A stretch of DNA of 64,000 nt from an uncultured Actinomycetes bacterium (GTDB lineage Bacteria; Actinomycetota; Thermoleophilia; Solirubrobacterales; 70-9): contig CAWJJU010000002.1 in NCBI GenBank assembly GCA_963843315.1, forward strand, positions 166,872 to 230,871. Direction: 5' to 3'. Position numbers and translations under genes: made by a program. Position 1 is the stretch's first letter. Each line of letters opens with the position of its first letter. Shown here piece by piece: positions 28,539 to 59,752 of the stretch. A model generated the notes under the pieces. That model was not told the origin of the DNA, did no database searches, and saw only the letters and a list, made by a program, of their open reading frames with translations.

Positions 28539-30655
28539 GCCACCACGACCGCCTCCATGCGCTCGCCGAGCGAGCGCCAGGCGGCCTCGGCGTCGGCCAC
28601 GGAGACGTCCAGCGACATGGCGCCCGCCCGGATCGCAATCGTCTCGCCCCCGGCGGCCCCGATCACGGCGAACTCGACACCCTCGGCGCCGGCCCGGGCG
28701 GCCAGGCGCCCGATCGCGGCGGGCTCACCGGCCAGCAGCACTCCCGCGGGCCCCTCGCCGAAGACCGCGTCCTCGCCGCCGCCGACCTCGACGCTCGCGC
28801 CCACGCGGCCGGCGATCGCCATCTCGGCGAGCGCACAGGCCAGGCCGCCGTCGCTGACGTCGTGCGCGGCGCCCACCTCACCGGCCCGCACGGCCTCGCG
28901 GACGAAGCCGAGGGCGCGGCGCGCGGCCTGGACGTCGACCTCGGGCAATCCGGCCGACAGCTCGCCGCGCTGCTTGGTCAGCTCCGACCCGGCCGCCGAG
29001 GGCGCGAAGGGGCCCGCGAGGGCGATCGCGTCGCCCTCGCGCAGGGCGGTGCCCGGAGCGCCGGCGGGATCCGGCAGCTCGCCGGCCATGCCGACCACCG
29101 GGGTGGGATAGATCGGGCCGGACTCGGTTTCGTTGTACAGGGAGACGTTGCCGCCCACCACCGGCACGCCGAGCGCTCGGCAGGCGTCGGCCAGGCCCCT
29201 CACGGACTGCGAGAGCTGCCAGGCGACGTGGGGCTTCTCGGGGTTGCCGAAGTTCAGGCAGTTGGTCAGGCCGAGCGGCTCGGCGCCGGCGCAGGCGAGG
29301 TTCGCCGCGCACTCCAGCACCGCCTCCACCGCCCCGCGGTAGGGATCGCAGGCGACGCGGCGGCCGTTGCCGTCGATTGCCAGCGCGACGCCCACCCCGG
29401 ACTCGTGGATATCGAGCACCGCCGCGTCGGCGGCCTCGGGACGGCGCAGGGTGCGCGAGCCCACGATCGAGTCGTACTGCTCGAAGGCCCAGCGCTTGCT
29501 CGCGATGTTGGGCGAGCCGAGCAGCGCCAGCAGGGTCTCCTCAGGGGAGGCGTCGGCCGCGAGGGTCGCGTCGTTGCCGTACAGCCAGCCGTCGGGCTCG
29601 GCGGGGTCGAGGTCGTACAGCGGGCACTCGTCGACCAGCGCCTTCACCGGCACCTCGCCCACCAGCTCCGAGCCGTCGAGCACGCGGATCGTCTCGCCCT
29701 CGGTGATCTGGCCGATCACCGCGGCGCTCGTCTGCCAGCGCTCGCAGACGGCGAGAACCTCGTCGACCCGCGACGGCTCGACCACCGCGAGCATCCGCTC
29801 CTGCGACTCGGACACCATCACCTCGAACGGCTCGAGGTCGGGGTTTCGAAGCGGGACCGCCGAAACGTCGATGTCGAGGCCGACCTCGCCCTTCGAGGCC
29901 ATCTCCCCCGCCGACGAGGTGAGCCCGGCCGCACCCAGGTCCTGAAGCGAGACCAGCAGGTCGCCCGCCAGCAGCTCCAGGCAGCACTCGAGCAGCTTGT
30001 GCTCCTCGAAGGGGTCGCCGATCTGCACGGTCGGACGCTTGGCGTCGCCCTCCTCCAGCTCGGCCGAGGCCAGCACCGAGGCGCCGCCGATGCCGTCGCG
30101 CCCGGTCGAGGCACCGAACAGGACCAGCGCGTTGCCGGGGCCGGCGGCCGCCGAGCGGATCATCTCGTCGGCCCTCGCCAGACCCGCGCACATGGCGTTG
30201 ACCAGGCAGTTCTGCTCGTACGGCGCCTCGAAGGCCACCTCGCCGCCCACCGTGGGGACGCCGATCGAGTTGCCGTAGTGCCCGATGCCGGCCACCACGT
30301 GGTCGAAGAGATAGCGCGAGCGCTCCGAGCTGAGCTCGCCGAAGCGCAGCGAGTCGAGCACCGCGATGGGTCGCGCGCCCACCGCGAAGACGTCGCGCAG
30401 GATCCCGCCGACGCCGGTGGCGGCGCCCTGGAAGGGCTCGACGGCGCTGGGGTGGTTGTGCGACTCGACCTTGAAGGCCAGGGCCCAGCCGCCCGGCAGG
30501 CTGACGGCCCCGGCGTTCTCGCCCGGGCCCATCACCACGCGCTCGCCCTCGGTGGGCAGCTGGCCCAGGAGCTTTCGCGAGTGCTTGTAGGCGCAGTGCT
30601 CGGACCACAGCAGCGAGAACATCGCCAGCTCGACCCCGTTGGGCTCGCGGCCCAT
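28535..30655 (-). CDS. purL: Phosphoribosylformylglycinamidine synthase II; the true start is probably upstream (near 30740) across a frame break
   Basis: Contains ..ELAMFSLLWSEHCAYKHSRK..ENAG..FKVESHNHPSAVEPFQGAATGVGG.. The homologous N-terminus (TPHRELGLTDREYELIVEH) continues upstream of the ATG at 30655 with no ATG/GTG/TTG before an in-frame TGA. An ATG at 30740 lies in another frame. Confidence 0.9.
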   Translation of the reverse strand: MGREPNGVELAMFSLLWSEHCAYKHSRKLLGQLPTEGERVVMGPGENAGAVSLPGGWALAFKVESHNHPSAVEPFQGAATGVGGILRDVFAVGARPIAVLDSLRFGELSSERSRYLFDHVVAGIGHYGNSIGVPTVGGEVAFEAPYEQNCLVNAMCAGLARADEMIRSAAAGPGNALVLFGASTGRDGIGGASVLASAELEEGDAKRPTVQIGDPFEEHKLLECCLELLAGDLLVSLQDLGAAGLTSSAGEMASKGEVGLDIDVSAVPLRNPDLEPFEVMVSESQERMLAVVEPSRVDEVLAVCERWQTSAAVIGQITEGETIRVLDGSELVGEVPVKALVDECPLYDLDPAEPDGWLYGNDATLAADASPEETLLALLGSPNIASKRWAFEQYDSIVGSRTLRRPEAADAAVLDIHESGVGVALAIDGNGRRVACDPYRGAVEAVLECAANLACAGAEPLGLTNCLNFGNPEKPHVAWQLSQSVRGLADACRALGVPVVGGNVSLYNETESGPIYPTPVVGMAGELPDPAGAPGTALREGDAIALAGPFAPSAAGSELTKQRGELSAGLPEVDVQAARRALGFVREAVRAGEVGAAHDVSDGGLACALAEMAIAGRVGASVEVGGGEDAVFGEGPAGVLLAGEPAAIGRLAARAGAEGVEFAVIGAAGGETIAIRAGAMSLDVSVADAEAAWRSLGERMEAVVVA

Positions 30656-30707
30656 GTGCTCGACGATCAGCTCGTACTCGCGATCGGTCAGCCCAAGCTC
30701 CCGATGC

Positions 30708-30754
30708 GGGGTCAGACCCCTTGAGTCGCCTCCGACTCATGGGGTCATGACCCC
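30708..30754. repeat. Palindrome pair GGGGTCAGACCCC (30708-30720) and GGGGTCATGACCCC (30741-30754)
   Basis: Located at the GT4/purL junction. The second palindrome contains the glycosyltransferase stop codon. The spacer carries the hairpin GAGTCGcctcCGACTC. Confidence 0.85.
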
Positions 30755-31875
30755 ATGACGGGGGTCCTGGGGGGCGCGGGGCGGCGGGCGGTGGCGGTGT
30801 CGACCAGCTCGCCCATGCCGTCGACCGTGTGCGACCAGGCTCGCTCAGAGCGCACCTCGCGCGCGCCGGCGGCCAGCCGCTCGCGCTCGGCGTCGTCGGC
30901 CACGCGCTCCATCAGCTCCGTGAGGTGACCGATGTCCGGGTCCCAGGCCGGGATGCCCGACTCGGCCGTGCCGTTTTGGATCGAGCGCACCAGCAGGCCG
31001 TTTCGCTCATGCTCGATCACCTCGTTCAGCGGCGCGAAGTCGCTGGTGATCACCGGCCTGCCGAACGCCATCGCCTCGAACAGGGGCAGGCCCAGGCCCT
31101 CCCAGCGGGCCGGCGTCAGCACCACGTCGGCGCCGGCGACGGTCGCGAGGTGGTCGCTCGTCGTCTGGTCCTCCAGAAGGAACTCGATGCGCGAGTCGCT
31201 CTCGGCCGCCTCGCGGGCGAGCTTGGTGCGCTTGTTGCGCTCGACCTGCGCCTTGATCAGCAGGCGAAGGCGCGGGTTCGTCGTCTTCTGGAACGCCTCG
31301 ATCGCCGGCGCGACGGGCTTGCGGTGGCCGATGAACCCGGCGGGGAAGATGAGCTGGACGACGTCGCCGGGCGCCGTGCGCTTGGGTGTCACGTCGAGTA
31401 GCTCGGGGTTGATGCCCCACGGCACGTACGGAGTCTCGAGGCCGAAGCTCCGGTAGCGCTCCTGCTCGCAGCGGGTCATCGAGTAGACGATGTCGAAGGC
31501 GTCACGGGCGCCGGGCACGTCGGCCTCGGTGAAGTGCTCCCAGACGAACCGGCCGATGGTCACGACCCCGCGGGCGCGCAGCGAGGCGAGCTCGTCGAAC
31601 TGGTAGTTCTGGTCGCACAGGATCACCTCGATGCCGCGGCGCTCGACCCAGCTCTCGTACTCCTCCGCGGTGATGTCGTAGGCCGCCGCCTCGTCGACGT
31701 TGGGCTGGTCCCACACGTCGTCGCGCTGAAGGCGGCCCTTCATCGGCCCCCGCTCCTTCTTGGGGCGGGCGAGGATGAACGTCTCGTGGCCCAGCTCGTC
31801 CATGGCCGAGCGCAGCTGGCGGGCGACCACGGGCTGGCCGCGGTTGAACCACTTCGTGACGAGGCCGACGCGCAC
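30745..31875 (-). CDS. GT4-family (group 1) glycosyltransferase, paralogue 1
   Basis: Starts at the GTG at 31875: VRVGLVTKWFNRGQPVVARQLRSAMDELGHETFILARP.. ..ARWEGLGLPLFEAMAFGRPVITSD (EX7E region). Paralogous to 37966..39063 and 54319..55407. Confidence 0.8.
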   Translation of the reverse strand: MRVGLVTKWFNRGQPVVARQLRSAMDELGHETFILARPKKERGPMKGRLQRDDVWDQPNVDEAAAYDITAEEYESWVERRGIEVILCDQNYQFDELASLRARGVVTIGRFVWEHFTEADVPGARDAFDIVYSMTRCEQERYRSFGLETPYVPWGINPELLDVTPKRTAPGDVVQLIFPAGFIGHRKPVAPAIEAFQKTTNPRLRLLIKAQVERNKRTKLAREAAESDSRIEFLLEDQTTSDHLATVAGADVVLTPARWEGLGLPLFEAMAFGRPVITSDFAPLNEVIEHERNGLLVRSIQNGTAESGIPAWDPDIGHLTELMERVADDAERERLAAGAREVRSERAWSHTVDGMGELVDTATARRPAPPRTPVMGS

Positions 31876-32792
31876 TACGTCGCGGAGTCGACCGGCACGC
31901 CGGTCTCGTAGCCGAGGTCGGCCAGCATGTCGCCGGCGATCGCCTCGAAGGCCTGGCGATCGGCCTCCGGCATCTGGCGCTTCCAGCGGCTGATGCGGTC
32001 GGTGTCGGGCGGCTTGGTGGTCATCGCGTGGGTCGCCATCCTGCGCTCGACGGTGAGGTCCTGCGCGCGGCCCTCGGCGGGCAGCGCTCGCGCCATCTCG
32101 CCGAGGCGGTCCGCCGAGCGCTCGTGGTAGCTCAGCATCGCGTCGTCCCAGGGAAGCTCGATGAACTCGCAGACCCTGCGCAGCACCGGCTCGGTGTCGG
32201 CGATCAGGTCCTCGTAGCGGACCTCGGTGTAGTACGCGAGCTTCGGGCCCATTCGCCGCGCCTTCTCGATCTTCTTCTTCCACCGCCCGCCGACGTGGGC
32301 GGCGTCGATGTCGCGGACCGTCCGGTCGAGCACCGAGAGCGCGACGTCGCGGCCGTCGCGGATGACGTGCACGAAGCGGGCCTCGGGCAGCGCCCTCTCG
32401 ATCTTCCGCATCTGCCCCACGTAGCGAGGGGTCTTCTCACCCCAGCGGGGCTTGCCCTGACGGGCTGCGTAGGCGCGATAGAAGGAGCGCACGGCCTCCC
32501 CGGCGTCGAGACCGTCGATGGCGGCCAGCCATCCCAGGGCCTCTTCGTCGGAGAAGTCGAAGTCGTTCCACTCGCGATGAGCCTTCATGGCCGCCAGCGC
32601 CGACTGCGGCGTCGCGCCGGCGGCGTTGCAGGCGTCGATCAGGTCCGGGACGAAGTGCGTCTCCGGCGGGATCGTCAGCTCGGGGTGAGCGTCGAGCATC
32701 ATCCGCAGCAGGGTCGTCCCCGAGCGGTTCATGCCGACGACGAACGGGAACGACGTGGCGGTGGTCTCGGGTCGGCGTCTGGTCAGCGGCAA
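31875..32792 (-). CDS. PAPS-dependent sulfotransferase family protein, ST1
   Basis: 5'-PSB-like loop VVGMNRSGTTLL and 3'-PB-like VHVIRDGRDVALS. The stop overlaps the downstream GT4 start by 1 nt. Confidence 0.75.
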   Translation of the reverse strand: MPLTRRRPETTATSFPFVVGMNRSGTTLLRMMLDAHPELTIPPETHFVPDLIDACNAAGATPQSALAAMKAHREWNDFDFSDEEALGWLAAIDGLDAGEAVRSFYRAYAARQGKPRWGEKTPRYVGQMRKIERALPEARFVHVIRDGRDVALSVLDRTVRDIDAAHVGGRWKKKIEKARRMGPKLAYYTEVRYEDLIADTEPVLRRVCEFIELPWDDAMLSYHERSADRLGEMARALPAEGRAQDLTVERRMATHAMTTKPPDTDRISRWKRQMPEADRQAFEAIAGDMLADLGYETGVPVDSAT

Positions 32793-32807
32793 GCTAGGCC
32801 TCCCGCG

Positions 32808-33482
32808 TCACGCCGCGAGCTTCTGCTCGGCGGCGACGGCGGCAAAGAGTCGCAGGCCGTCGGCGGATCCCGTCCGCTCGTCGACGGCGTGCTCGGGGTG
32901 GGGCATGAGGCCCATCACGTTGCCCGCGGCGTTGGTGACCCCGGCGATGTCGGCGGTCGAGCCGTTGGGGTTGTCTCCCGGGGCGTAGCGGAAGGCGATC
33001 TGCCCGGCGGCATCGAGCTCGGCCACCGTGGCGTCGTCGGCGAACCAGCGCCCGCAGGCGTGCTTGACGGGAATCGAGAGCACGTCGCCGGCCGTGAGGC
33101 CGTCGGCGAACGGGCCCGAGGCCGAGCCCGCGATCAGGTCGACCTGGCGGCAGACGAAGCGAAGCCCGTCGTTGGGCAGCAGCGCTCCGGGCAGGAGCCC
33201 TGCCTCGCAGAGCACCTGGAAGCCATTGCAGATGCCGAGCACGGGGGCGCCGCCCGACGCCATCTCGGAGACCGCGCCCATCGCCGGAGCAAAACGCGCG
33301 ATGGCGCCGGCGCGAAGGTAGTCGCCGTAGGAGAAGCCGCCGGGAACGACGACCGCGTCGAGGTCGTCGAGGTCCGTCTCCTCGTGCCAGACGAGGCGGG
33401 CGTCGCCCACCCGCGCGCACGCCGCGACGGCGTCGCGCTCGTCGCATGAGCCGGGGAACTGAAGGACGCCGAACCGCGTCAC
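32808..33482 (-). CDS. purQ: Phosphoribosylformylglycinamidine synthase, glutamine amidotransferase subunit
   Basis: Contains ..VVVPGGFSYGDYLRAGA..VLGICNGFQVL..MGLMPHPEHA. Confidence 0.93.
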   Translation of the reverse strand: MTRFGVLQFPGSCDERDAVAACARVGDARLVWHEETDLDDLDAVVVPGGFSYGDYLRAGAIARFAPAMGAVSEMASGGAPVLGICNGFQVLCEAGLLPGALLPNDGLRFVCRQVDLIAGSASGPFADGLTAGDVLSIPVKHACGRWFADDATVAELDAAGQIAFRYAPGDNPNGSTADIAGVTNAAGNVMGLMPHPEHAVDERTGSADGLRLFAAVAAEQKLAA

Positions 33483-33715
33483 GCGGCGGCCTCGTCGACC
33501 ATCTCGATCTCGTAGTCCTCCACAAGTGGGTTGGCGAGAAGCTGCTCGCAGAGCCGGCCGAGGGCCGACTCGTCGTCGGCCTCGAGCTCGACCAGACGGC
33601 CGACGCGGACGTCGGAGATCCCCTCGAAGCCGAGCGCCGGCAGCGCCCTCTCGACGGCCTTGCCCTGGGGGTCGAGGATGCCCTCCTTCGGGCGGATGAG
33701 CACGCGCGCCTTCAC
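33479..33715 (-). CDS. purS: Phosphoribosylformylglycinamidine synthase subunit PurS
   Basis: 78 aa: MKARVLIRPKEGILDPQGKAVERAL..LANPLVEDYEIE. Overlaps the purQ start. Confidence 0.9.
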   Translation of the reverse strand: MKARVLIRPKEGILDPQGKAVERALPALGFEGISDVRVGRLVELEADDESALGRLCEQLLANPLVEDYEIEMVDEAAA

Positions 33716-33752
33716 GCTCGGAGCGTAGATGATCGCCCCGAGCGAACCGGCG

Positions 33753-35207
33753 TCAGGGGGTGGTTGCCACGAGGGTCGGAGACTCGTTGAGCACGTACTC
33801 GCTGAGGCGAACAGGCGACACCGTGACCGGACGGCGAGAGCGGTACTTATCGAGTACGAAAGGCCTGGGCGCCGGCACCCGGGCGATCTCCCGGAGCCCG
33901 TGCCGCGGAGGATTGCCCGCTGCGCCCGCGCTCAGGACGTCGACCTCGCGAAGCCCCTTGGGGACGTCGCTCTTGCCCCGCACCCGAGTGGCCCCCAGGT
34001 AGTAGACGAGGCCCTGGTTGCCGTTGGCAGGGGCGACGATCAGCCTCGGCACCTCAGAAGGCCCGATCGCGGCGGCCGCGCCTCGCCAATCGGGTCGCTG
34101 CATCTGCGGGCTGCGGTAGACCGCCAGGTCGACGGCCGCGAACATGACGACGCCCAGCAGCGCCGCGAGCAGGCCGAGGCGCCCGGCGCCCGTGGCGCCG
34201 CAACCGACCGCCATGACCAGGAGCAGCGGGACCTCCGCAGCGATCGTGTTTCGCGGATCGAGGAAATCGAGGCCGATGTATGCGAGAACGACGGGGACGA
34301 GGAGGGCTGCGGCGCCAACCGAACCGAGAGCCAGCGCCCCGAATCGCTCAACCGCAAGGGGGCTGCGCGCGGCGAACAGGATCGAGCCGATGAGCAGAAG
34401 CGCACCGCCCGCCGCGGCGAGACCCTGGACGGCATCGATCGCTCCCGTCCCGGCGAAGGCGCCGGGTTCTTCGCTCGCAACGTAGTTGAGGGCGGACTCG
34501 CCGGCGCGCGAAACGACGGAGCGGTTAGTGAATTCGTTTCTGCGTCCCGACCCCTCCTGATGAAGGGCGAAGGGGGCAAGCGCCAGGCCCACCAGGCCCA
34601 CTACGGCGACGGCGGCGAGCGTCCCGCGTGGCCGGCGCGACCTCTGCGTCAGCAGCCACACCGCCTGGGGCGCGATCGCGAACACGGCGAAGTAGTGCGA
34701 GCACAGCGCGAGCCCCGAGGCAGCGGCCCAGAGGCCGAGCGAGCGTGGAGTCGGTTCCCGGAGCGACTCGGCGAAGTAGACGAGCGCGACCGCGCTGAAG
34801 AAGACGAGAAACGCGTACGAGCGCGCCTCCTGCGAGTACCAGAGGAGGAAGGGATTGAAGGCGACGAGCGCGGCTGCGATCAGGCCTGCGCGCCTCGAGC
34901 CGAACACCACGGCGGCCCGGTACGCAACCGGGATGGTCAGGGTTCCGGCGAGCGCCGACAGCGACCGCAGTCCCACCTCTCCGGTCCCGAAGAGCTTCGA
35001 CCACAGCCAGGCCGCGAGGTAGTAGAGCGGTGGGCTGCGCTCACCGCCGCCCACCACGTGCATCGTCGCGCCGAGGTTCGCGTGCAGGACGCGGCTGGCC
35101 GTCACCGCCTCGTCGTGGTCATAGGACTGATGGCCGAGGGTGAGGAAACGAAGCAAGCCGCCCGCAACGACGATCGCTCCAAGCAGGCACCAATCCCTGC
35201 GTCCCAT
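33753..35207 (-). CDS. GT-C fold membrane glycosyltransferase (GT39/GT83, PMT/ArnT-like)
   Basis: 484 aa and polytopic. The first loop carries SYDHDEAVTA (acidic DE motif), followed by ..SPPLYYLAAWLWSKLFG..FNPFLLWYSQEARSYA. Confidence 0.7.
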   Translation of the reverse strand: MGRRDWCLLGAIVVAGGLLRFLTLGHQSYDHDEAVTASRVLHANLGATMHVVGGGERSPPLYYLAAWLWSKLFGTGEVGLRSLSALAGTLTIPVAYRAAVVFGSRRAGLIAAALVAFNPFLLWYSQEARSYAFLVFFSAVALVYFAESLREPTPRSLGLWAAASGLALCSHYFAVFAIAPQAVWLLTQRSRRPRGTLAAVAVVGLVGLALAPFALHQEGSGRRNEFTNRSVVSRAGESALNYVASEEPGAFAGTGAIDAVQGLAAAGGALLLIGSILFAARSPLAVERFGALALGSVGAAALLVPVVLAYIGLDFLDPRNTIAAEVPLLLVMAVGCGATGAGRLGLLAALLGVVMFAAVDLAVYRSPQMQRPDWRGAAAAIGPSEVPRLIVAPANGNQGLVYYLGATRVRGKSDVPKGLREVDVLSAGAAGNPPRHGLREIARVPAPRPFVLDKYRSRRPVTVSPVRLSEYVLNESPTLVATTP

Positions 35208-35257
35208 GGGCCGACTCTACGCCGCCGAAGCTATGTCGAAGCTAAGGGCTGCGCCGC

Positions 35258-36145
35258 TCAGGCGTAGCCGGCGGCCGCCATCGGCTCGGCCAGGCCGAGT
35301 TTGTCGATCAGCCCGGCCCAGGCGGGCTCGCCGGCGGCGTAGACCTGCTCCGCCGGGCGAACCTTGTCACGCGTCCATTCGCGCACCGCGGCCGGGGTCT
35401 CGCGGCCGAGCACCGCGTAGACCTGGTCGAGCGCGGCGGGAACGCTAGTGCGCAGGTCCTCGTTTCGAAGCAGCAGGTAGCGGTCGCCGAAGAGCCGGCG
35501 GCCGTCCTCGTAGGCGCTCTCGAAGGAGAGCTTCCACACCAGCAGCACCCGCTCGACGTCGGTGAGGTCCTCGGCCCCGCGGCCCTCGCGATCCAGGATC
35601 GCCTGCGAGATCGCCCGGCTCGACCACAGCTTGCGATCGGTCCGGTCGGTGAACATCGCGGCGGGCGAGGAGTACTTCTGCGCGCGCCGCCGGTTGCGGC
35701 CGAGCACGATCGAGGCGACGACAGCGCGCGGATCGCGGACCACGTGCACCAGCGCCGCGCCCGGGTCGATGTCGTGGACGTCGGCGAGCTTGCAGTACAG
35801 GCGGGTCTCCTTGATGGCGACGGCGGGCGCGAGGGTGAGCAGGTGCTTCAGCAGCTCGCGGGCGTGCTCCGGAAGGTGGTCGGTGATCTCCACAGAGGGG
35901 TCCCGGGGACCGCCCCAGTTGAACTCGTCGATCGGGATGTCCGGATAGCGCTCGCGCTGGAAGTCCTGGCGGATGGCCCGCATCTCGGCGAAGGCGTCGC
36001 CCTCGCGCGCGCCGGAGCCGCCGCCCTCGGTGACCTTCTGCTCGCGAAGCGGCTCGTAGAACGAGCGCAGCTCGGGGTCCTCGACGATCGCGTCGTGGAG
36101 GATCGTCGTCCCCGAACGACGCATCCCCTGGATGAAGAGGTTCAC
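35258..36145 (-). CDS. PAPS-dependent sulfotransferase family protein, ST3
   Basis: Starts at the GTG at 36145: VNLFIQGMRRSGTTILHD (5'-PSB), with HVVRDPRAVVASI (3'-PB). GTGA overlap with the purC stop. Confidence 0.7.
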   Translation of the reverse strand: MNLFIQGMRRSGTTILHDAIVEDPELRSFYEPLREQKVTEGGGSGAREGDAFAEMRAIRQDFQRERYPDIPIDEFNWGGPRDPSVEITDHLPEHARELLKHLLTLAPAVAIKETRLYCKLADVHDIDPGAALVHVVRDPRAVVASIVLGRNRRRAQKYSSPAAMFTDRTDRKLWSSRAISQAILDREGRGAEDLTDVERVLLVWKLSFESAYEDGRRLFGDRYLLLRNEDLRTSVPAALDQVYAVLGRETPAAVREWTRDKVRPAEQVYAAGEPAWAGLIDKLGLAEPMAAAGYA

Positions 36146-37002
36146 GAGGAGGTGAAGTCTTTGCCCGAGAGGCGCTCGTACGCCTCCACGTAGCGGGCGC
36201 GCGTGCGCTCGACGACCTCGGCCGGGAGGTTCGGCCCCGGGGGCGAGTGGTCCCAGCCCGACTCGTCGAGCCAGTCGCGCACGTACTGCTTGTCGAAGGA
36301 GGGCTGCCCGTGGCCAGGCTCGTAGGAATCGGCGGGCCAGAAGCGCGAGGAGTCGGGGGTGAACACCTCGTCGCCCAGGACGATGTCCTCGCCGGCGCCG
36401 CGGCCAAACTCGAACTTGGTGTCGGCGAGGATGATCCCGCGCCCGGCCGCGTGCTCGGCCGCCCGGTTGTACAGCTCGATCGAGGTGTCGCGAAGGCGCG
36501 TCATCAGGTCGCGGTCGCCGACGACCTCGGCCGCGCGATCGAAGTCGATGTTCTCGTCGTGCTCGCCGATCTCGGCCTTGGTGGCCGGGGTGAAGATGGG
36601 CTCCGGGAGCTTCTGCGACTCCTGGAGGCCGTCCGGCAGCTCGATGCCGCAGACCGTGCCGTCGCGCTTGTACTCCTTCCAGCCGGAGCCGGTGATGTAG
36701 CCGCGCACCACGCACTCCACGGGATGCATGTCCAGCTTGCGGACGCGCATGCCCCGGCGCGCGGCCTCGGGCGGGACCTCCTCGGAGATGAAGTGGTTGG
36801 GGCAGACGTCGCCGAGCAGGTCGAACCAGAAGATCGACATCTGCGTGAGGACCGCCCCCTTGTCGGGGATGGGGTCGGGCAGGACGACGTCGTAGGCGGA
36901 GATCCGGTCGGAGGCGACCATGATGAGGTCGTCGCCGTCCGCGTAGATCTCGCGGACCTTGCCGCTGGAGAGCAGTTCGAGGTCGGAAAGAGCCTGGGCC
37001 AT
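36142..37002 (-). CDS. purC: SAICAR synthetase
   Basis: Contains ..SGKVREIYA..MVASDRISAYD..ILADTKFEFG..DEVFTPDSSRFW. Confidence 0.93.
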   Translation of the reverse strand: MAQALSDLELLSSGKVREIYADGDDLIMVASDRISAYDVVLPDPIPDKGAVLTQMSIFWFDLLGDVCPNHFISEEVPPEAARRGMRVRKLDMHPVECVVRGYITGSGWKEYKRDGTVCGIELPDGLQESQKLPEPIFTPATKAEIGEHDENIDFDRAAEVVGDRDLMTRLRDTSIELYNRAAEHAAGRGIILADTKFEFGRGAGEDIVLGDEVFTPDSSRFWPADSYEPGHGQPSFDKQYVRDWLDESGWDHSPPGPNLPAEVVERTRARYVEAYERLSGKDFTSS

Positions 37003-37105: not shown

Positions 37106-37969
37106 ATGGATCAGACCGAGACCGGCCGGGCGTCGATTCCTGACGAGCAGACGAACGAGCGCGTGCGCCTGCTCGTCGTTGCGGCCGATGAGCATGTTGC
37201 CGAGCCCCTCGAGCGCGAAATCGAGCGCGTCGCCAACGGCCGTGACCCCGAGGTCAAGATCGTCGCTCCGGCGCTCGCGCGGACACGATTCGAGCATTCC
37301 GCGGGGGCGGTCGACGAGGGAATGAGCGTGGCACAGACCCGCCTCGGGCGCGCCGAGGACCGGGTCGCCCACGACGCCCGGATCGCGGCCGGGACGCTCA
37401 CCGCCGAGGAGGTGGGCGACGCAGATCCGATCCTGGCGATCGACGATGCGCTGGCGAACTTCCACGCCGACGAGCTGCTGCTCGTCACCCACTCCCAGGG
37501 CGACGGCCGCTGGCTCGAGGACGACATGTTCGAGCAGGTCCGCAGGCGCTTCGCCATCCCCGTCACCCACTTCGAGATCCAGCAGGCGGGCGAGGCCGTC
37601 GAGACCGAGCGCGCCGACGGGACCGACGTCCCCGCTATGGAGAGCACGAGCCGGTCGGGCAACCTCGCCGGGCTGGACTGGCGCGAGCGCCTCGGCATCC
37701 TCGTCGCGATCGTCGGCACCATCGTCCTGATCGTCATCGCCTCGGCCGGCAACAGCCTGTCCGCCGACACCGACCTGGGTCAGCTGCATCTGTCCTCGCA
37801 GGTGATCCGCATCGCGATCGCCGGGCTCATGGCCCTGATCAACATCGGCAACGTGGTCGGGCTGATCCTGTTCTCGAGCGTCGGCTATCGCGGGTTCTGG
37901 CAGCGAGCCTTCGCCCACACGTCGCTGTGGGGAACGCTGATCGCGATCCCCGTCGCGCTGATCGTCTAG
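37106..37969 (+). CDS. Hypothetical protein with a cytoplasmic N-domain and three C-terminal TM helices
   Basis: The ATG at 37106 follows GGGAGA. The N-domain is vaguely USP-like (..LLVVAADEH..DADPILAIDDALANFHADELLLVTH). The C-terminus is hydrophobic. Confidence 0.5.
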   Translation: MDQTETGRASIPDEQTNERVRLLVVAADEHVAEPLEREIERVANGRDPEVKIVAPALARTRFEHSAGAVDEGMSVAQTRLGRAEDRVAHDARIAAGTLTAEEVGDADPILAIDDALANFHADELLLVTHSQGDGRWLEDDMFEQVRRRFAIPVTHFEIQQAGEAVETERADGTDVPAMESTSRSGNLAGLDWRERLGILVAIVGTIVLIVIASAGNSLSADTDLGQLHLSSQVIRIAIAGLMALINIGNVVGLILFSSVGYRGFWQRAFAHTSLWGTLIAIPVALIV

Positions 37970-39063
37970 CCGCCGAGCAGCTCGCGCAGGTCGGCGAGCG
38001 TGTTGTCCCAGCTCAGCCGCTCGCGAGCGGCGCGCGCTCCGCCGATCAGGTCGCGGCGCATACCGGGGTCGGCCAGGCGCTCGATCGCCGCCGTCAGCTC
38101 GCGCCCATCCGGATCCCACGCCGGGATCCCCGAGGGCGCCGGCTCGCGGAACTGCACCCCGCGCACAAGCAGGCCGTTCTCGCCGTCGCGGACGACCTCG
38201 TTCATGGGCGGGTTGTCGTTGGTGATCAGCGGCATCCCGAGCGCGGTCGCCTCGAAGAGGTGCAGCCCCAGGCCCTCCCAGCGGCTCGGCGCCAGGCAGA
38301 CGTCGGCCGCGGCGAACAGGCGCCGGTGCTCGGCCTCAGGGAGGTCGGCGAAGACCGGCTGGATGCGGGCGTCGCCCTTCGTCGCCTTCTGCACCATCCC
38401 CATGCGCTTCTCCACCTGACCCTTGAGCACTAGCCGGAGGTTCTCGCCGTGGGCGCGTGAGAACGCCTCCAGCGCGGGCTTCAGCGGCTTGCGCTTGGTC
38501 ATGTAGCCGCCGGGGAAGAAGAACGTCACCGGCGCGTCCTCCGGACGCGCATCGCGCTCGGCGTCGAGCGTGACCGCCTCCTCGACCAGCTCCGGGTGGA
38601 TGCCCCACCGCACGCGCGGGCTCTCTATCCCCATCTTCGCGTAGCGCTCGCGCTCGCAGGCCGTGACCGAATAGACCTCGTCGAAGGCCCGCTTGGCGCC
38701 CTCCACGTTCTCGGTGGCGAACTGCTCCCACACGAAGCGGCCGTAGGTGCGCACGCCGGATTCCCGAAGCCTCGCGATCTCGTCGAACTGGTAGTTCTGG
38801 TCGAACATGACGGCGTCGAGCTCGTGCTGGCGCGCCCAGCGCTCCATCTCCTCGTAGGGGATGAGGTAGTGCGAGGCGGCGGTGACACCGGGCTGGTCCC
38901 AGACGTCGTCGGTCTGCAGGTGTCCCGGCTTGGCGGCGGTGTCCTTGGCCGGTCGCGCCAGCACCCAGGTCTCGTGGCCGAGCGTCTCCAGCGCCGAACG
39001 CAGGTGCCTGCCCACCACCGCCTGGCCGCGGTTGAACCAGAAGCACGAGACGCCTACTCGCAT
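37966..39063 (-). CDS. GT4-family glycosyltransferase, paralogue 2
   Basis: MRVGVSCFWFNRGQAVVGRHLRSALETLGHETWVLARP....SRWEGLGLHLFEATALGMPLITNDNPPMNEVV...RLSWDNTLADLRELL. Very similar to 54319..55407. Confidence 0.8.
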   Translation of the reverse strand: MRVGVSCFWFNRGQAVVGRHLRSALETLGHETWVLARPAKDTAAKPGHLQTDDVWDQPGVTAASHYLIPYEEMERWARQHELDAVMFDQNYQFDEIARLRESGVRTYGRFVWEQFATENVEGAKRAFDEVYSVTACERERYAKMGIESPRVRWGIHPELVEEAVTLDAERDARPEDAPVTFFFPGGYMTKRKPLKPALEAFSRAHGENLRLVLKGQVEKRMGMVQKATKGDARIQPVFADLPEAEHRRLFAAADVCLAPSRWEGLGLHLFEATALGMPLITNDNPPMNEVVRDGENGLLVRGVQFREPAPSGIPAWDPDGRELTAAIERLADPGMRRDLIGGARAARERLSWDNTLADLRELLGG

Positions 39064-39070
39064 GGGCGGC

Positions 39071-39868
39071 TCAGGCCGGCGCGACGTCGGTGAAGTTGGG
39101 CCAGACCGAGAGGTCGAGCTCGGGCACCAGGCCCTTCAGCCGGGCCACGTCGTCGCGAAAGCGGCGCACCAGCTCGGCGTGGCGCTCGGGCGAGAGCTCC
39201 GGCTTGGTGCCCGGCGGCCGCTTGTGCTGGGCGAGCTTGTCGGGCATCTCCGTCAGCGGCTCGAGACCCAGGAACTCCTGGGTGCGGCGCATCTGGCCCA
39301 TCGCGTCGTTGCGACAGGCCTCGTGCTGGAGGATCAGGACGCGCTCGCGCGGATAGAGCTCGTAGATGCCCCTGACCTGCTCGTAGTAGAGGCCGCGGTA
39401 CACCGCCTCGGAGAGGTGGGACAGCGAAAAGGGCTCCCCCGCCTCGTCGGCGAGCATCCGCTCGCGCTGGATGCCCGACCGCAGGCGCTCGACTGGGTCG
39501 CGCAGCATCACCAGGATCTTGGCGTCGGGCGCCGCGTCGTGCAGCAGCTTCATCGCCCACCAGTCGACCATGTAGCGCGGGGTCCACTCGCCCGTGATCG
39601 CGCCCTCGGGCTTGGGGAAGAACGAGTGGTAGGTCTCCACGAGGTCGGGCGGCTCGGCGCCCTCCCAGAAGCGGTCGAAGTAGTGCAGCTCCTTGCCCGG
39701 CTTGGCGACGCGCACGACGTCCGGGTGCGAGCGGATCGTGCCGCGATACCACCACGACGTCCCGCAGCGCTGCGCGCCGACGCCCACGAAGTCGGGTGGG
39801 CCGGCGTTCCAGCCGGCGGGGGTCTCCGGGACCTCGATCCCCATGGTCCAGCGTTCCTGAGGGCTCAT
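39071..39868 (-). CDS. PAPS-dependent sulfotransferase family protein, ST2
   Basis: GVGAQRCGTSWW (5'-PSB) and VMLRDPVERLRSG (3'-PB). Lies 7 nt upstream of GT4 paralogue 2. Confidence 0.75.
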   Translation of the reverse strand: MSPQERWTMGIEVPETPAGWNAGPPDFVGVGAQRCGTSWWYRGTIRSHPDVVRVAKPGKELHYFDRFWEGAEPPDLVETYHSFFPKPEGAITGEWTPRYMVDWWAMKLLHDAAPDAKILVMLRDPVERLRSGIQRERMLADEAGEPFSLSHLSEAVYRGLYYEQVRGIYELYPRERVLILQHEACRNDAMGQMRRTQEFLGLEPLTEMPDKLAQHKRPPGTKPELSPERHAELVRRFRDDVARLKGLVPELDLSVWPNFTDVAPA

Positions 39869-39939: not shown

Positions 39940-40242
39940 ATGGCAGATGCACCTCGTCCGCCGGGCTACGTCGCCGACAAGGAGGCTGTGCTGCGCCGGC
40001 TCTCGCGAGTCGAGGGACAGGTGCGCGGGATCCGGGGAATGGTCGACGACGAGGCCTACTGCATCGACGTCCTCACCCAGATCGCCGCCGCGACCAAGGC
40101 GCTGGACGGGGTCGCGCTGACCCTGCTGGCCGACCACACGAATCACTGTGTCCGCGACGCGGTCGCCGAGGGTGGCGACGCGGCCGACGAGAAGGTCGGC
40201 GAGCTGATCGCCGCGGTCGAGCGCTTCGCGCGGACGCGCTAG
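39940..40242 (+). CDS. csoR: CsoR/RcnR-family metal-sensing transcriptional repressor (Cu-type C-H-C fingerprint)
   Basis: RLSRVEGQVRGIRGMV, YCIDVLTQ and ..DHTNHC.. are the DUF156 hallmark motifs. Confidence 0.85.
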   Translation: MADAPRPPGYVADKEAVLRRLSRVEGQVRGIRGMVDDEAYCIDVLTQIAAATKALDGVALTLLADHTNHCVRDAVAEGGDAADEKVGELIAAVERFARTR

Positions 40243-41738
40243 CCCGGGGGCCCGGGGATCGCCGGCAGCGGGCGGCGGCAGGAGTCGCCGCTGCACTTGG
40301 CGAGCTGCACGAGGAGCGGGCGCAGGGCGTCGAGCGTGGCGGAGTACGTGGGATCGTGCGCGACGTTGTGGAGCTCGCCAGGGTCTCGCTGGAGGTCGAA
40401 GAGCTCCTGGGCACCGTTCAGGTAGTGCGTGTAGACGTAGCGCGGCGTACGGATCGAGTGGTAGCCGAGCCCCTCGACCGCGGCGCCCTCGTAGAGGATC
40501 GGCCGCCTGCTCCACGCGGAGGGGTCGTTCGCCTGCGCGACCAGCGACACGCCGTCGGTGCCTCGGCGCCAGGGGGCGCGGGCCAGGCTGAGGATGGTCG
40601 GCATCAGGTCCATGTTCCCCACGAGCTGGTCGCGCACGACGCCGGCCGGGAAGCCTGGGCCCCGGATCACGAGCGGGACCTTCACCGACTCCTCGTACGG
40701 GCGCTCCTTGCCCGCGGCCCGGTGCTCGCCGAGGAGGAAACCGTTGTCCGAGGTGAAGACGAAGACGGTGTTGTGCAGCTCGCCGGTGCTGCGCAGCGTG
40801 TCGACGAGGCTCCCCACGCCGCGGTCCACGGCCAGCAGGCTGGCCAGCCGGTCGCGGTATGCGGACGCGATCGCGGCTACAGGCCGGTCGGCGTGCTGCG
40901 GTGCCCGGAGCCGCTGAGGCTCCCCTGTGATCGGCGCCTCGAAGGACGGGGGACGAGGAAGCGGCCGATGCTCGAAGGCAGACTCATCCTGTGGCGCCGG
41001 CTGGGGGTTGCGCTGCCCCGGGACGACGGGAGCGTTGTGGGGGGCGGTTGGCGCGTAGGTGAGGAAGAACGGCTTGGGCCCTCCCGCGCTCTGCCGGATG
41101 AAGCCGGCGGCGAGGTTCGCGAGCGCGGTCGTCTGGTAGTCGGCGGGTCCCGCGGGCGGCTGGACCATCGTCCCGTTCTCATTGGCGCTCCAGCCGTACA
41201 TCAGGTACTCGGTGGGGCCGAACAGCCCGTCGAAGACATCCCACCCCCGCGGCATGTCCGTCGCCGGGTCCTCGGGCGCGTATTCGTTCAGGAACTTCCC
41301 CACGTATCCCGTTCGGTAGCCGGCGCTCTGCATCTCCGCGCCGATCGTGCGCCTCTGGTCGACGTGTGCGATGTACCCGACGTAGCCGCCATCCGGCGCA
41401 TCATTCGTGAGGATCCCGTGGTTGTGCGCGTACTCGCCGGTCATGAACGTGGTGCGGGAGGGGCAGCAGAGCGGGTAGGTGGCGAAGTTGTTCGCGAACG
41501 TGGTGCCGTGCCTGGCCAACTCGCGCCGGACCGCGGGCATGACGCTAAGGTCATCCGCTCGCTGGTCGTCGGTCATGACCACGACGACGTTCGGTTGACG
41601 CGCCGGCAGATGCGCCGTCAGGCTGGGGAACACCAACGGCCGGCCCGCGGGGGGGCCCTTCGCGTTGTCGGCGGAGCCGCACCCCGAGGCCATGGCCGGC
41701 ACAACGAGGAGCAACGGGATTAGGGCACGTCGGAACAT
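40239..41738 (-). CDS. Formylglycine-dependent sulfatase (arylsulfatase family), lipoprotein
   Basis: The ATG at 41738 gives MFRRALIPLLLVVPAMASGC (lipobox). Also NVVVVMTDDQRADD and LCCPSRTTFMTGEY (CxPxR FGly motif). Confidence 0.85.
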   Translation of the reverse strand: MFRRALIPLLLVVPAMASGCGSADNAKGPPAGRPLVFPSLTAHLPARQPNVVVVMTDDQRADDLSVMPAVRRELARHGTTFANNFATYPLCCPSRTTFMTGEYAHNHGILTNDAPDGGYVGYIAHVDQRRTIGAEMQSAGYRTGYVGKFLNEYAPEDPATDMPRGWDVFDGLFGPTEYLMYGWSANENGTMVQPPAGPADYQTTALANLAAGFIRQSAGGPKPFFLTYAPTAPHNAPVVPGQRNPQPAPQDESAFEHRPLPRPPSFEAPITGEPQRLRAPQHADRPVAAIASAYRDRLASLLAVDRGVGSLVDTLRSTGELHNTVFVFTSDNGFLLGEHRAAGKERPYEESVKVPLVIRGPGFPAGVVRDQLVGNMDLMPTILSLARAPWRRGTDGVSLVAQANDPSAWSRRPILYEGAAVEGLGYHSIRTPRYVYTHYLNGAQELFDLQRDPGELHNVAHDPTYSATLDALRPLLVQLAKCSGDSCRRPLPAIPGPPG

Positions 41739-43551
41739 CAAGCTTGGGCCACGCAAGAGAGCCGTTTGCCCTTTATGCGCGGTTGTCGCCGCCCTCGCTC
41801 TCACGGGATGCGGAGCGGGCGGGAGCGGATCGGCGGAATCGTCGCAGACCCCGCGGCCGCTCGGCTGCGCCAAGACGTACGGCATCCACCTCGGGAATCC
41901 CGACGAGGCTGAGCTGCGCGCCGCCCTGCACCACGAGTTCCGCGTGTTCAACCGCCGCGAACGGCTGGTCGTGCCGGTGAACTGGATGCAGGACCCCGAG
42001 CACAGCCATCGCTACCGCCAGAACCTCCAGAAGCTGCGGTTCCTGCGTCCGCTCCTCGACTCATACGAGGAGACCAGGGACATGCGGGCGTTGCGCGAGG
42101 CGCTGGGGCTGGGAATCGACTGGGTGCGCCAGAACCCGCGCGGAGGCCACGGGACTTCGCCCGACGCCTGGGAGGGGAAGGCGATCGGCGATCGTGTGCC
42201 GTTCCTCGGCGTTCTCGACTCCGCTGCTCACTGCGAGCACCTGCGGCGGCCGGCGCGGATCCTCGACGCGGCCCTCGTCGCGCACGGCAAGGCCCTTGCC
42301 GATCCGGCTGTCTACACGCCCAACAATCACGGCCTCTTCACCGACATCGGCCTCTATCTGGTCACCCGCTACGCCCCCGTGCTCCCGCAGGATCGATGGT
42401 GGCAGCGGCTCGCCACGACGCGATACGCGCAGACCCTCCAGGACCGCCTCTCACACGGCGTGTGGCTGGAGCACTCCTCCGCCTACCAGTTCCTGGTCGA
42501 GACCTCACTGGCGGGCTTCATCGAAGACGTCGGGCACAACCCGAGGCTGGAGCGGATCGACCGTCAAATGCGCCGCGCCGGCGGATGGTTCCTGGAACCC
42601 GACGGACGGATCTCGCTGCTGGGCGACTCCGACGAGAAGGACACCTCCGGATGGGCACACCGCCGGGCGGAGCGGACCTTCGGGCTGAAGCTCTTCCGCG
42701 GGGCTGGCTTCGCGTTCGTCCGCGCTCACGAGGACGGCGGCGGGACCGGCTACCTGACGGTCACCGACGGCTTCCACAACCTCACGCACAAGCACGCCGA
42801 CGAGCTCTCATTCGAGCTCTACGACCACGACCAGCGGCTGGTCGCCGACACCGGGCTCTACGACAAGGACCCGGGGCCCATCCGCGACTTCGACCTCTCG
42901 ACCCAGGCGCACTCGACGATCTCCGTCGACGGACGCAGCTACCCCATCGCCGATCCGAACGCGGTCTACGGCTCGGGACTGGAAGCGGCCGGCTCGACGG
43001 GGACCCTCTTCGCGATCGAGGGCCGCAACCGCATGCTCTCCCAGGAGGGCGTGAAGCAGCAGCGGCTGTTCCTCTACGAGCCCGGCGCCGGGCTGCAGGT
43101 GATCGACTGGCTCAGCTCACCGGCCGCTCACACCTACGACTCCTATCTCCAGCTCGGACCGAACGTCCAGGTGAGCCGCGACGGGCCGGGAGCCCTCTCC
43201 CTTTCCGCGGGCGTGCCCGAGGAAGGCGGCCTTCAGGGAGCCCTGTACGAGTGGGGAACCCCTCATCCCGCGACGAGCACGGTGCGGGGCAGCCGCCACC
43301 CGCTCGCCGGCTTCACGTCGCCTCAGTTCCGGGTGCTCATTCCCCGGACCACGGTTGACATGCGCACCCAGGGCACCGACGAAGTGCAGGCGTACTCGAT
43401 CGCGATGGACCCGACGGGCATTCACGTGGGGCGCGTAAGCGGCTCTCCCCGGCGAACCGATGTGCAGCTGGTCGATCGCACCGGCGAGCCCCAGGAAACG
43501 CTGCGGGTGACCCGCCGCGGCCACACGCTCACCATCCACCGCATCCCATGA
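41692..43551 (+). CDS. Heparinase II/III-like polysaccharide lyase family protein, lipoprotein; start uncertain
   Basis: Contains ..VVAALALTGCGAGG (lipobox) and ..NLTHKHADELSFELYDHDQRLVADTGLYDKD.. (Hepar_II_III signature region). A start at the ATG at 41692 overlaps the sulfatase 5' end. Alternatively, the ATG at 41777 could be the start if a +1 frame error is present. Confidence 0.65.
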   Translation: MAGTTRSNGIRARRNIKLGPRKRAVCPLCAVVAALALTGCGAGGSGSAESSQTPRPLGCAKTYGIHLGNPDEAELRAALHHEFRVFNRRERLVVPVNWMQDPEHSHRYRQNLQKLRFLRPLLDSYEETRDMRALREALGLGIDWVRQNPRGGHGTSPDAWEGKAIGDRVPFLGVLDSAAHCEHLRRPARILDAALVAHGKALADPAVYTPNNHGLFTDIGLYLVTRYAPVLPQDRWWQRLATTRYAQTLQDRLSHGVWLEHSSAYQFLVETSLAGFIEDVGHNPRLERIDRQMRRAGGWFLEPDGRISLLGDSDEKDTSGWAHRRAERTFGLKLFRGAGFAFVRAHEDGGGTGYLTVTDGFHNLTHKHADELSFELYDHDQRLVADTGLYDKDPGPIRDFDLSTQAHSTISVDGRSYPIADPNAVYGSGLEAAGSTGTLFAIEGRNRMLSQEGVKQQRLFLYEPGAGLQVIDWLSSPAAHTYDSYLQLGPNVQVSRDGPGALSLSAGVPEEGGLQGALYEWGTPHPATSTVRGSRHPLAGFTSPQFRVLIPRTTVDMRTQGTDEVQAYSIAMDPTGIHVGRVSGSPRRTDVQLVDRTGEPQETLRVTRRGHTLTIHRIP

Positions 43552-52309: not shown

Positions 52310-54198
<1,889 letters not shown>

Positions 54199-59728: not shown

Positions 59729-59752
59729 CCAAAGCGGCTACCGTCAGCCACC

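Follow-up and report, generated by a model that had tools for sequence, protein, structure and literature searches.

Sulfotransferase and glycosyltransferase genes threaded through the purine genes of Solirubrobacterales point to a candidate sulfated glycoconjugate system

Why should a soil actinobacterium keep sulfotransferase (ST) and glycosyltransferase (GT) genes in the midst of its purine biosynthesis genes, and what could their products make together? The question is raised by a 64-kb stretch of DNA (the window in the rest of the text; G+C content of about 70%) from a soil actinobacterium of the Solirubrobacterales, abundant, poorly cultured actinobacteria of soil and desert whose envelope chemistry is almost unknown. 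An earlier note on this DNA had described repeated modules, each made of a ST gene followed by a family GT4 glycosyltransferase gene, and had proposed that they belong to a system for the biosynthesis of a sulfated glycoconjugate. Because of the high G+C content of the window, genes were called by their third-position GC content (GC3). All open reading frames (ORFs) named in that note exist and are of coding type (GC3 of 0.84 to 0.96), with the ST and GT ORFs on the minus strand. The proposed system stood as regards its gene families and their co-conservation, whereas its modular form and its completeness did not. The conserved layout described below points to a sulfated, sugar-containing product in a group in which none is known.

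A context that the earlier note left unmentioned is that purL, purQ, purS, purC, purB, purE and purD are threaded among the ST and GT genes. Pfam and NCBIfam assignments define a minus-strand purine-gene scaffold at 28535-37002, in which the genes follow in the order purC (36142-37002), ST-b (35258-36145), a GT-C membrane glycosyltransferase gene (33753-35207), purS (33479-33715), purQ (32808-33482), ST-a (31875-32792), GT4-a (30745-31875) and purL (28535-30655). The ST and GT genes are co-directional and interleaved with purC, purS, purQ and purL, with gaps of -4 to 89 bp: the start of ST-b overlaps the stop of purC by 4 nt, ST-b precedes the GT-C gene by 50 bp, the latter lies 37 bp from purS, purS and purQ overlap by 4 nt, purQ is separated from ST-a by 15 bp, the stop of ST-a overlaps the start of GT4-a by 1 nt, and GT4-a, the last gene before purL, is followed by a gap of 89 bp. 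Upstream of the scaffold lie purD, purE and purB, then a heparinase-like gene, a sulfatase gene, a gene for a CsoR-like repressor, ST-c (39071-39868, minus strand) and, 7 bp further on, GT4-b (37966-39063, minus strand), while an alpha/beta hydrolase gene, a DrrAB-type ABC-2 pump, purF, purN and purH are found downstream of purL. A ST gene thus directly precedes two of the GT4 genes and a third ST gene precedes the GT-C gene, as had been described.

Internal terminators (between 25 and 44 kb) or sigma-70 promoters that would split the operon were not predicted above chance, in a scan that is weak at 70% GC. The overlapping or near-abutting frames in the purC-purS-purQ-purL slots make it probable that a common transcript covers the ST, GT and purine genes. 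Co-transcription with housekeeping genes would in turn make the product a constitutive cell component and not a facultative secondary metabolite, and the placement of the island on the pur scaffold suggests its constitutive expression.

All three STs of the window contain the 5'-phosphosulfate-binding (5'-PSB) and 3'-phosphate-binding (3'-PB) motifs for the sulfate donor 3'-phosphoadenosine-5'-phosphosulfate (PAPS) that the earlier note had reported: GMNRSGTT and RDGRDVALS in ST-a, GMRRSGTT and RDPRAVVAS in ST-b, and GAQRCGTS and RDPVERLRS in ST-c. ST-a and ST-b match the Pfam family Sulfotransfer_3 (3e-36 and 126 bits; 2e-14 and 54.7 bits; gathering cut-off of 27 for both) and ST-c matches Sulfotransfer_1 (9e-15; 55.1 bits compared to a cut-off of 22). 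Judged by their sequences, the three STs belong to different clades, with only 28-30% identity to ST-a in the alignment. ST-a falls in a clade with tyrosylprotein sulfotransferases (TPST) and NoeE, and ST-c in the carbohydrate clade of heparan-sulfate 3-O-sulfotransferases (3-OST) and N-sulfotransferases (NST), its PDB matches being 3rnl, a bacterial structural-genomics ST (4e-14), heparan-sulfate 3-OST-3A (2e-10) and NST (1e-3). ST-b is very divergent. Its search against solved structures returned no match with the single sequence and a 27-residue P-loop match only with a profile. Its AlphaFold2 (AF2) model (mean predicted local distance difference test score, pLDDT, of 90.3) retrieved 35 sulfotransferase structures with Foldseek at E≤1e-3, the nearest being TPST, Stf1 of Mycobacterium tuberculosis and Stf9 of Mycobacterium avium, although at low TM-scores (0.40-0.48). 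No hydrophobic segment was found in the STs or the GT4s of the window.

The three GT4 genes, GT4-a, GT4-b and GT4-c (54319-55407, minus strand, between a cytochrome c gene and dnaK), are paralogous, as had been proposed from their ends. Alignment gave identities of 49-50% for GT4-a and GT4-b, 44% for GT4-a and GT4-c and 63% for GT4-b and GT4-c. All three share the N-terminus W-x-NRGQ ... LGHET..LARP, and GT4-b and GT4-c also share the C-terminus RLSWDNTLADLRELL. GT4-a and GT4-b match Glycos_transf_1 (1e-18 and 3e-17) and GT4-c matches Glyco_trans_1_4 (4e-11); the Glycos_transf_1 scores are 68, 63 and 38.8 bits for GT4-a, GT4-b and GT4-c, respectively, compared to a gathering cut-off of 26.4. 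The EX7E motif, RWEGLGLPLFEA in GT4-a, lies in a stretch, RWEGLGLxLFEA, that is invariant across the three paralogs, and E-x7-E is found in 136 of the 147 family members from the related loci introduced below. GT4-a is thus classed as a soluble GT-B glycosyltransferase of the retaining type. For GT4-b, the AF2 model (pLDDT 92.4, predicted TM-score 0.90) has the GT-B fold of two Rossmann domains, and Foldseek placed it with probability 1.0 near MshA, sucrose-phosphate synthase (SPS), BshA and PimA (TM-scores of 0.65-0.73), with GlgM also near. As all these neighbours are only 12-20% identical to GT4-b, they do not discriminate between substrates. Pfam, AF2 and Foldseek therefore support the GT4 and ST calls.

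The N-terminal, acceptor-binding half of these GT4s sets them apart. NCBIfam matches to characterised GT4 subfamilies were all far below their cut-offs, and sequence and profile searches of the PDB with GT4-b reached only residues ~153-356, save for one weak match from residue 72. Homologs of GT4-b exceed 2000, Solirubrobacterales being the sole organism named among the 120 matches listed, and of 1.84 billion cluster representatives just 251 are related to its N-terminal half of 170 residues. By sequence, the acceptor domain is a rare, lineage-restricted family. A few of its relatives are fused to GT2 domains or lie within large proteins with tetratricopeptide repeats (TPR) and several GT domains. 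Five such proteins (P0458, P0460, P0478, P0484 and P0487; 955-1774 aa), whose N-domain homologs are distant (30-36% identical), combine TPR repeats with two or three GT4 or GT2 domains and sometimes a methyltransferase domain, an architecture that resembles polymerising glycosyltransferases. A candidate link to defence systems was rejected: matches to PF20706 ("GT4-conflict") are weak and lie under stronger Glycos_transf_1 matches, and no PADLOC model matched the STs or GT4s.

Is the association of these families a peculiarity of one genome? Related loci were collected by scanning one genome per species with the GT4, which yielded 80 loci (labelled with L-numbers), nearly all assigned by label to Solirubrobacterales, Conexibacteraceae or Thermoleophilia, onto which the proteins of the window were mapped by tblastn. 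A recurrent order emerged: purB ... purC, ST-b, purS, purQ, then several ST-a-like STs and GT4 paralogs, sometimes with ST-c, then purL and purF. At least one ST lies within 10 kb of the GT4 at 74 of the 80 GT4-anchored loci (mean 4.7, maximum 11), and 107 of the 158 GT4 genes have a ST within 300 bp. The purQ-purL interval holds 3-9 STs and 1-4 GT4s in all 35 loci that contain both purQ and purL; the slot of the window, with one ST and one GT4, is a reduced version of this island. ST-b is the most position-conserved member (between purC and purS at 44/48 loci), and its constant place in the midst of housekeeping genes poses a small puzzle of operon evolution. GT4-b and GT4-c fall in one of at least six GT4 orthogroups of the related loci, which relatives carry between clpB and GYD-purD, and the GT4-a orthogroup is found at 50/80 loci. 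The repeated module of a ST followed by a GT4 therefore gives way to another conserved unit, a ST-rich island in which STs outnumber GT4s by 2-9 to 1.

Since the first loci had been chosen through the GT4, a second retrieval was made with ST-a, which brought 80 metagenome loci, 39 of them of at least 6 kb. Among these 39, a GT4 of the family is present in 34 and pur genes in 26. The co-conservation of ST and GT4, whose absence the earlier note had set as a refutation of its proposal, was thus seen in both directions; the pattern is far above chance and recurs among the 80 genome and 80 metagenome loci, with the layout repeated in over a hundred related genomes and metagenome contigs. One protein, P0371 (708 aa), combines a full-length ST-b-like domain (46% identical to ST-b) with a full-length GT4-a-like domain (51%) across a joint of ~46 residues, and may represent a genuine ST-GT4 fusion or an ORF call that ran on past a lost stop codon.

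The STs of the islands appear to be functional enzymes of long standing. Among the 359 ST genes at the 80 loci, the 5'-PSB motif is kept in 90% and the 3'-PB motif in 96%. In the alignment of 257 ST-a-like paralogs, R23, E44, K120, R145 and S153, which include the Arg of the 5'-PSB, the putative catalytic Glu 21 residues downstream of it and the putative catalytic Lys, are conserved at 96-100%, as are the Ser, Gly and Thr of the 5'-PSB. These 257 proteins form at least 14 orthogroups present in at least seven loci each, with identities of 66-79% within a group, and each orthogroup has its own typical neighbours or position in the island. Old, position-fixed orthogroups that have kept their catalytic residues fit regiospecific enzymes with different jobs, and not a recent tandem amplification.

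These observations bear on the view that there is no common pathway at all, the pur slots being permissive insertion sites in which unrelated ST, GT, sulfatase and lyase genes hitch-hike with essential neighbours, and the sulfatase and heparinase-like protein merely scavenging sulfated glycans from the environment. Such a view, which we consider highly improbable, draws on the variable content of the slots, which hold by lineage a GT-C gene, a methyltransferase gene, an ABC pump with a hydrolase or a S26 peptidase, on the presence of the sulfatase and heparinase-like genes at only ~10/80 loci, and on the fact that interspersed pur clusters are usual in Actinobacteria. It does not sit well with the co-occurrence of ST and GT4 in both retrieval directions and in two collections, nor with ancient ST orthogroups that stay fixed in position with their catalytic residues. 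Moreover, the reading frames of ST/GT4 pairs overlap or lie end to end, as would suit translational coupling, STs also gather around GT4-b-type genes located elsewhere than in the purQ-purL slot (L062, L071 and L073), and the GT4 N-domain family is tiny and essentially limited to the island context.

If the enzymes act together, on what do they act? The closest solved relatives of ST-a are TPST structures, with which it aligns at 1e-19 over residues 2-298, followed by the ST domains of CurM and olefin synthase. R23, E44 and K120 correspond to the catalytic Arg, Glu and Lys of TPST. The substrate-contact Arg located two residues after the catalytic Glu of TPST is His46 in ST-a and His in 221 of the 257 paralogs, and the column aligned to the catalytic Ser of TPST (S268) holds Gly or Ala in most of the ST-a-like paralogs; the roles of this Ser and of the substrate-contact Arg are those reportedly described in the TPST2 structure paper. 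The only curated bacterial family matched by ST-a is NoeE, the Nod-factor fucose sulfotransferase, through a partial match at 3e-10.

One could therefore propose that ST-a-type enzymes are phenol or tyrosine O-sulfotransferases and that the island decorates a peptide, protein or small aromatic compound, with no sulfated glycan involved. The full-length alignment of ST-a with TPSTs, its catalytic Glu and Lys and the rank of TPST as top Foldseek match of ST-b all speak for this proposal. So do some genes carried by islands in relatives. A cation-dependent O-methyltransferase of the catechol/CCoA type (5e-55 to PDB 5lhm) occurs in the islands of 12/80 loci, some of them with a gene for a P450 or for a FAD amine-oxidase-like protein. 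We nevertheless find it quite improbable, since none of the islands showed a precursor peptide or a core gene of the RiPP, NRPS or PKS type, the one curated bacterial family matched by ST-a is that of a carbohydrate sulfotransferase, ST-c belongs to the heparan-sulfate carbohydrate clade and the sulfatase that accompanies the island is similar to carbohydrate 6-O-sulfatases. To have nine paralogous tyrosine sulfotransferases serve a single substrate would be unprecedented as well.

The accessory genes of the islands in relatives include a GT2-like protein, two families of S-adenosylmethionine-dependent methyltransferases, one of which is this O-methyltransferase, a secreted 416-aa protein, the P450 and the FAD oxidase. 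Islands with methyltransferases are those of L021, L037, L072 and at least 10 other loci (for example L072:11075-11740 and L077:9238-9987). Together, the methyltransferases, the P450 and the FAD amine-oxidase-like gene give a hint that methylated or aromatic groups form part of the product. A link to the mycobacterial enzymes of methylmannose-polysaccharide synthesis was considered and rejected: the Methyltransf_3 protein is a generic catechol/CCoA-type enzyme, and the other methyltransferase resembles the tRNA methyltransferase CmoB.

A carbohydrate substrate is also suggested by the two divergent genes at 40-43.5 kb, whose identification as sulfatase and heparinase-like genes was borne out. 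The first (40239-41738, minus strand) codes for a predicted lipoprotein of the formylglycine-type carbohydrate sulfatases (Sulfatase 1e-46, with SGSH_C), with the motif CCPSR (C-x-P-x-R) at residue 91 of its 499-aa form and a lipobox-like LVVPAMASGC. Its best solved relatives are a GlcNAc-6-sulfatase (2e-34), a mucin-desulfating sulfatase and galactose-6-sulfatases. The second (41692-43551, plus strand, start uncertain) codes for a heparinase II/III-like protein with a polysaccharide-lyase fold (Hepar_II_III_C 2e-26; weak heparinase III match at 8e-4), also a predicted lipoprotein with a lipobox-like LALTGC. When both genes are read from the longest start that bears a signal peptide, their 5' ends share 46 bp (41692-41738). 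At least one of the two starts probably lies further downstream; in the closest relative, the called sulfatase has 440 aa.

The block of heparinase-like, sulfatase, ST-c and GT4-b genes is conserved in the closest relatives. The closest long relative (GCA_038237625.1), whose GT4-b is 83% identical, has the same order, including the heparinase-like, sulfatase, CsoR, ST-c and GT4-b genes, and differs by a methyltransferase gene in the GT-C slot and by lacking the membrane protein gene at 37106-37969. The ST-c/GT4-b pair is kept in L073, L077, L082 and L083, and the heparinase-like gene also lies beside the sulfatase gene in L082 and L083. These last two loci also keep the position of the gene for the CsoR/RcnR-type metal-sensing repressor (39988-40242, plus strand), located between ST-c and the sulfatase gene. 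In a second architecture, found in differently arranged genomes, homologs of both genes lie inside the purQ-purL island: heparinase-like homologs occur within the islands of L003, L011, L016 and L033, the last of which contains a sulfatase gene, nine STs, a GT4 and the heparinase-like gene. GT4-b-type genes outside the purQ-purL slot have nearby STs in L062, L071 and L073.

Two lipoproteins that would act outside the cell raise the question of how the product gets there. The earlier note held that the window contains most of what is needed to build, export or attach, and turn over a sulfated glycan. Neither the window nor the islands were found to contain genes for PAPS synthesis, an initiating polyprenyl-phosphate transferase, Wzx/Wzy (flippase and polymerase) or a co-polymerase, which disagrees with that claim. 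Six unassigned island proteins were also checked; they are soluble or have one hydrophobic segment, none having more than one, and no hidden Wzx/Wzy-like protein was thus found among them. As for export, the sole transporter of the window is a DrrA/DrrB- and NodI/NodJ-like ABC-2 pair (25294-27032, minus strand; ABC2_membrane 6e-24), which is not conserved at its position. Its ATPase matches the drrA subfamily above cut-off (2e-106) and NodI below cut-off (6e-70), and no Wzt- or KpsT-type family is among the 25 families listed of the 175 that match it. The pair lies 1.5 kb beyond purL, and L003 and L011 have a homologous pair within their islands. In mycobacteria, pumps of the DrrABC type serve for lipid export. 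The ABC-2 pair is a possible exporter, weakly linked to the island.

Alternatively, the product could stay in the cytoplasm as an oligosaccharide or glycoside of small size that bears sulfate and, in relatives, methyl groups too, for example a compatible solute or a counterpart of the mycobacterial polymethylated polysaccharides that acts as a carrier, with sulfate esters replacing or joining the methyl ethers. We judge this unlikely, though several features agree with it. The STs, GT4s and methyltransferases are all soluble, no flippase or polymerase was found, and embedding in a housekeeping operon suits a core metabolite. The excess of STs over GTs (2-9 to 1) is unlike repeat-unit clusters such as xss, which has 8 GTs and 2 STs (PMC8205485). 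The enzymes to which GT4-b is structurally closest (MshA, SPS, GlgM and BshA) take small anionic acceptors, and a mannosyltransferase of methylmannose-polysaccharide synthesis (7qsg) is also among the matches of GT4-b. Foldseek scores, however, hardly separate GT4 subfamilies, all at 12-20% identity, and the distant homologs of the GT4 N-domain are found in proteins with TPR and several GT domains typical of polymer synthesis. An extracytoplasmic lipoprotein sulfatase and a lyase-like protein accompany the island in two architectures, some islands contain an ABC-2 exporter, and the window has a GT-C gene, all of which tells against an intracellular product.

From the family assignments, conserved motifs, folds and conserved gene order we infer, with modest confidence, that lineage-specific GT4s and PAPS-dependent STs of three clades assemble a sulfated glycoconjugate in the cytoplasm, which would then probably be exported and trimmed outside the cell. 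With nucleotide sugars as donors, the soluble cytoplasmic GT4s would assemble or lengthen a short glycan on some acceptor, and the STs would esterify different positions of this glycan, sulfation having to be cytoplasmic because PAPS is located there. The product would then be exported, possibly by the DrrAB/NodIJ-type ABC-2 pump. In the lineage of the window, the GT-C enzyme may further glycosylate or attach it at the outer face of the membrane, and the GlcNAc-6-sulfatase-like lipoprotein and the heparinase II/III-like protein would trim or recycle it outside the cell. The acceptor may be a short glycan, a glycolipid or a polymer.

Several observations weigh against such a pathway. No paper describing a sulfated product in the group, or linking sulfotransferases with Thermoleophilia, Conexibacter or Solirubrobacter, was found. 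No gene for the synthesis of PAPS or for the initiating, flipping and polymerising functions was found in the window or the islands, and the ABC pump, of a generic DrrAB type, is absent at the same position in L082, one of the closest relatives. The GT-C gene, found in L073 only among the 80 loci, is a lineage-specific accessory gene. The best solved relatives of ST-a sulfate tyrosine, not sugars, and the O-methyltransferase, P450 and FAD oxidase of relatives fit an aromatic small-molecule substrate equally well. The acceptor domain of the GT4s has no characterised match in sequence or profile searches, and the ORF of P0371 may owe its length to a lost stop codon. In Actinobacteria, pur genes are often only loosely grouped and interrupted by unrelated ones, as in Rv0780-Rv0809 of M. 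tuberculosis, and embedding alone is therefore no proof of a functional link with purine metabolism.

We put forward a wider proposition tentatively and regard it as rather doubtful: that an envelope or extracellular glycan, sulfated heavily and at specific positions, is produced constitutively by the Solirubrobacterales, and probably by the Thermoleophilia more widely, its whole assembly taking place in the cytoplasm, with no Wzx/Wzy, through lineage-restricted GT4s and up to about ten fixed ST paralogs, whose genes have been locked in the purine operon since before the order diversified. Were this true, Actinomycetota would have their first documented sulfated glycan system, and no known bacterial glycan locus would be denser in sulfotransferases. 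Present across the order with 3-11 STs that are apparently expressed together with housekeeping genes, the island offers a concrete, testable entry point, with the prediction that 35S-sulfate labels a glycoconjugate. The at least 14 positionally fixed ST orthogroups and a GT4 family with a new acceptor domain are also candidate tools for making sulfated sugars.

The remaining genes of the window are more loosely connected to the island. The GT-C gene, located between ST-b and purS, codes for a PMT_2/GT39-like protein (PMT_2 9e-15, PMT 1e-7) with about nine hydrophobic segments and a HDE motif in its first loop. The gene at 37106-37969 (plus strand), convergent with GT4-b, codes for a protein with three C-terminal hydrophobic segments that had no match in Pfam, NCBIfam or PADLOC and no homolog in the 80 loci, and the gene is absent in L082; it is probably not part of the system. 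The cytochrome c gene (55445-56041, minus strand; Pfam Cytochrom_C), which codes for a protein with an N-terminal transmembrane segment and 22 Ser among its last 45 residues, does stand beside GT4-c in the window as had been described, but this adjacency is not kept in relatives, which have the cytochrome c gene beside dnaK without a GT4. A functional link between the two was therefore rejected as not being a conserved feature. The best NCBIfam match of this cytochrome, below cut-off, is SorU, the cytochrome subunit of sulfite dehydrogenase, and its Ser-rich tail could be a candidate O-glycosylation target for the GT-C enzyme.

On the other side of GT4-c, dnaK is split into two ORFs (52302-54198, minus strand; junction near 52955) that cover positions 2-415 and 431-599 of HSP70. 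The junction reads ATT CCC G ACC CGC AAG, with one extra G, the mark of either a pseudogene or a +1 frameshift due to faulty assembly or sequencing. Close to GT4-c, the genes at 59171-61705 (plus strand) code in a row for a PAP2_3 phosphatase, a CDP-alcohol phosphatidyltransferase and a myo-inositol-1-phosphate synthase, a pathway for a phosphatidylinositol-type lipid or an inositol-phosphate solute. Finally, the 514-aa protein encoded at 4228-5772 (minus strand) carries at its C-terminus a lysyl-oxidase domain (1.5e-12), an unusual feature for bacteria.

How does the island compare with known sulfation systems? Three of them resemble single parts of it only. In the tailoring of rhizobial Nod factors (NoeE and NodH, with the NodIJ exporter), ST-a finds its NoeE match and the neighbouring ABC ATPase its NodI match (6e-70), and both routes would have cytoplasmic sulfation of a small glycoconjugate followed by its export through an ABC-2 pump. 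Both matches are nonetheless far below equivalog cut-offs (39.6 vs 500 bits for NoeE and 236 vs 521 bits for NodI), the island is without the NodABC genes for the chitin oligomer, its glycosyltransferases belong to GT4 and not to GT2, and the pump is not conserved with it. The mycobacterial Stf proteins are likewise actinobacterial cytoplasmic STs, acting on glycolipid-type acceptors, and Stf1 (2zq5) and Stf9 (2z6v) ranked second and fifth for ST-b, but with TM-scores of 0.40-0.48 only and 13-14% identity. The STs of the window did not match the trehalose-sulfotransferase (Stf0-type) family, and, unlike mycobacterial sulfoglycolipid pathways, the island has no polyketide synthase, acyltransferase or MmpL genes. 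Animal TPST1 and TPST2, the best solved homologs of ST-a, share with it the Arg of the 5'-PSB, the Glu 21 residues further on, the Lys, and the Arg and Ser of the 3'-PB; unlike them, ST-a is cytoplasmic, lacks a signal anchor and has a His at the position of the substrate-binding Arg.

The closest kind of system is that of the sulfated-exopolysaccharide clusters. Bacterial sulfated polysaccharides have been stated to be reported from cyanobacteria only (PMC8205485, PMC13390465), to which a tentative proposal for Actinoplanes was added in 2026 (PMC13390465). The clusters concerned are xss, for synechan of Synechocystis PCC 6803 (PMC8205485), and the proposed wps-1 of Actinoplanes missouriensis (PMC13390465), each of which has two STs, many GTs and a complete set of Wzx, Wzy and polysaccharide co-polymerase (PCP) (PMC8205485, PMC13390465). 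The island, in contrast, counts three STs in the window and as many as 9-11 in its relatives for 1-4 GT4s, is threaded through a chromosomal purine operon and belongs to the Thermoleophilia; as none of the Wzx, Wzy and PCP components was found in it, it is not a member of the xss/wps-1 family. What it has in common with both clusters is the grouping of cytoplasmic PAPS-type STs of different subfamilies with several glycosyltransferases, an enzyme for glycan degradation within or close to the cluster and, as the proposed product, a sulfated carbohydrate.

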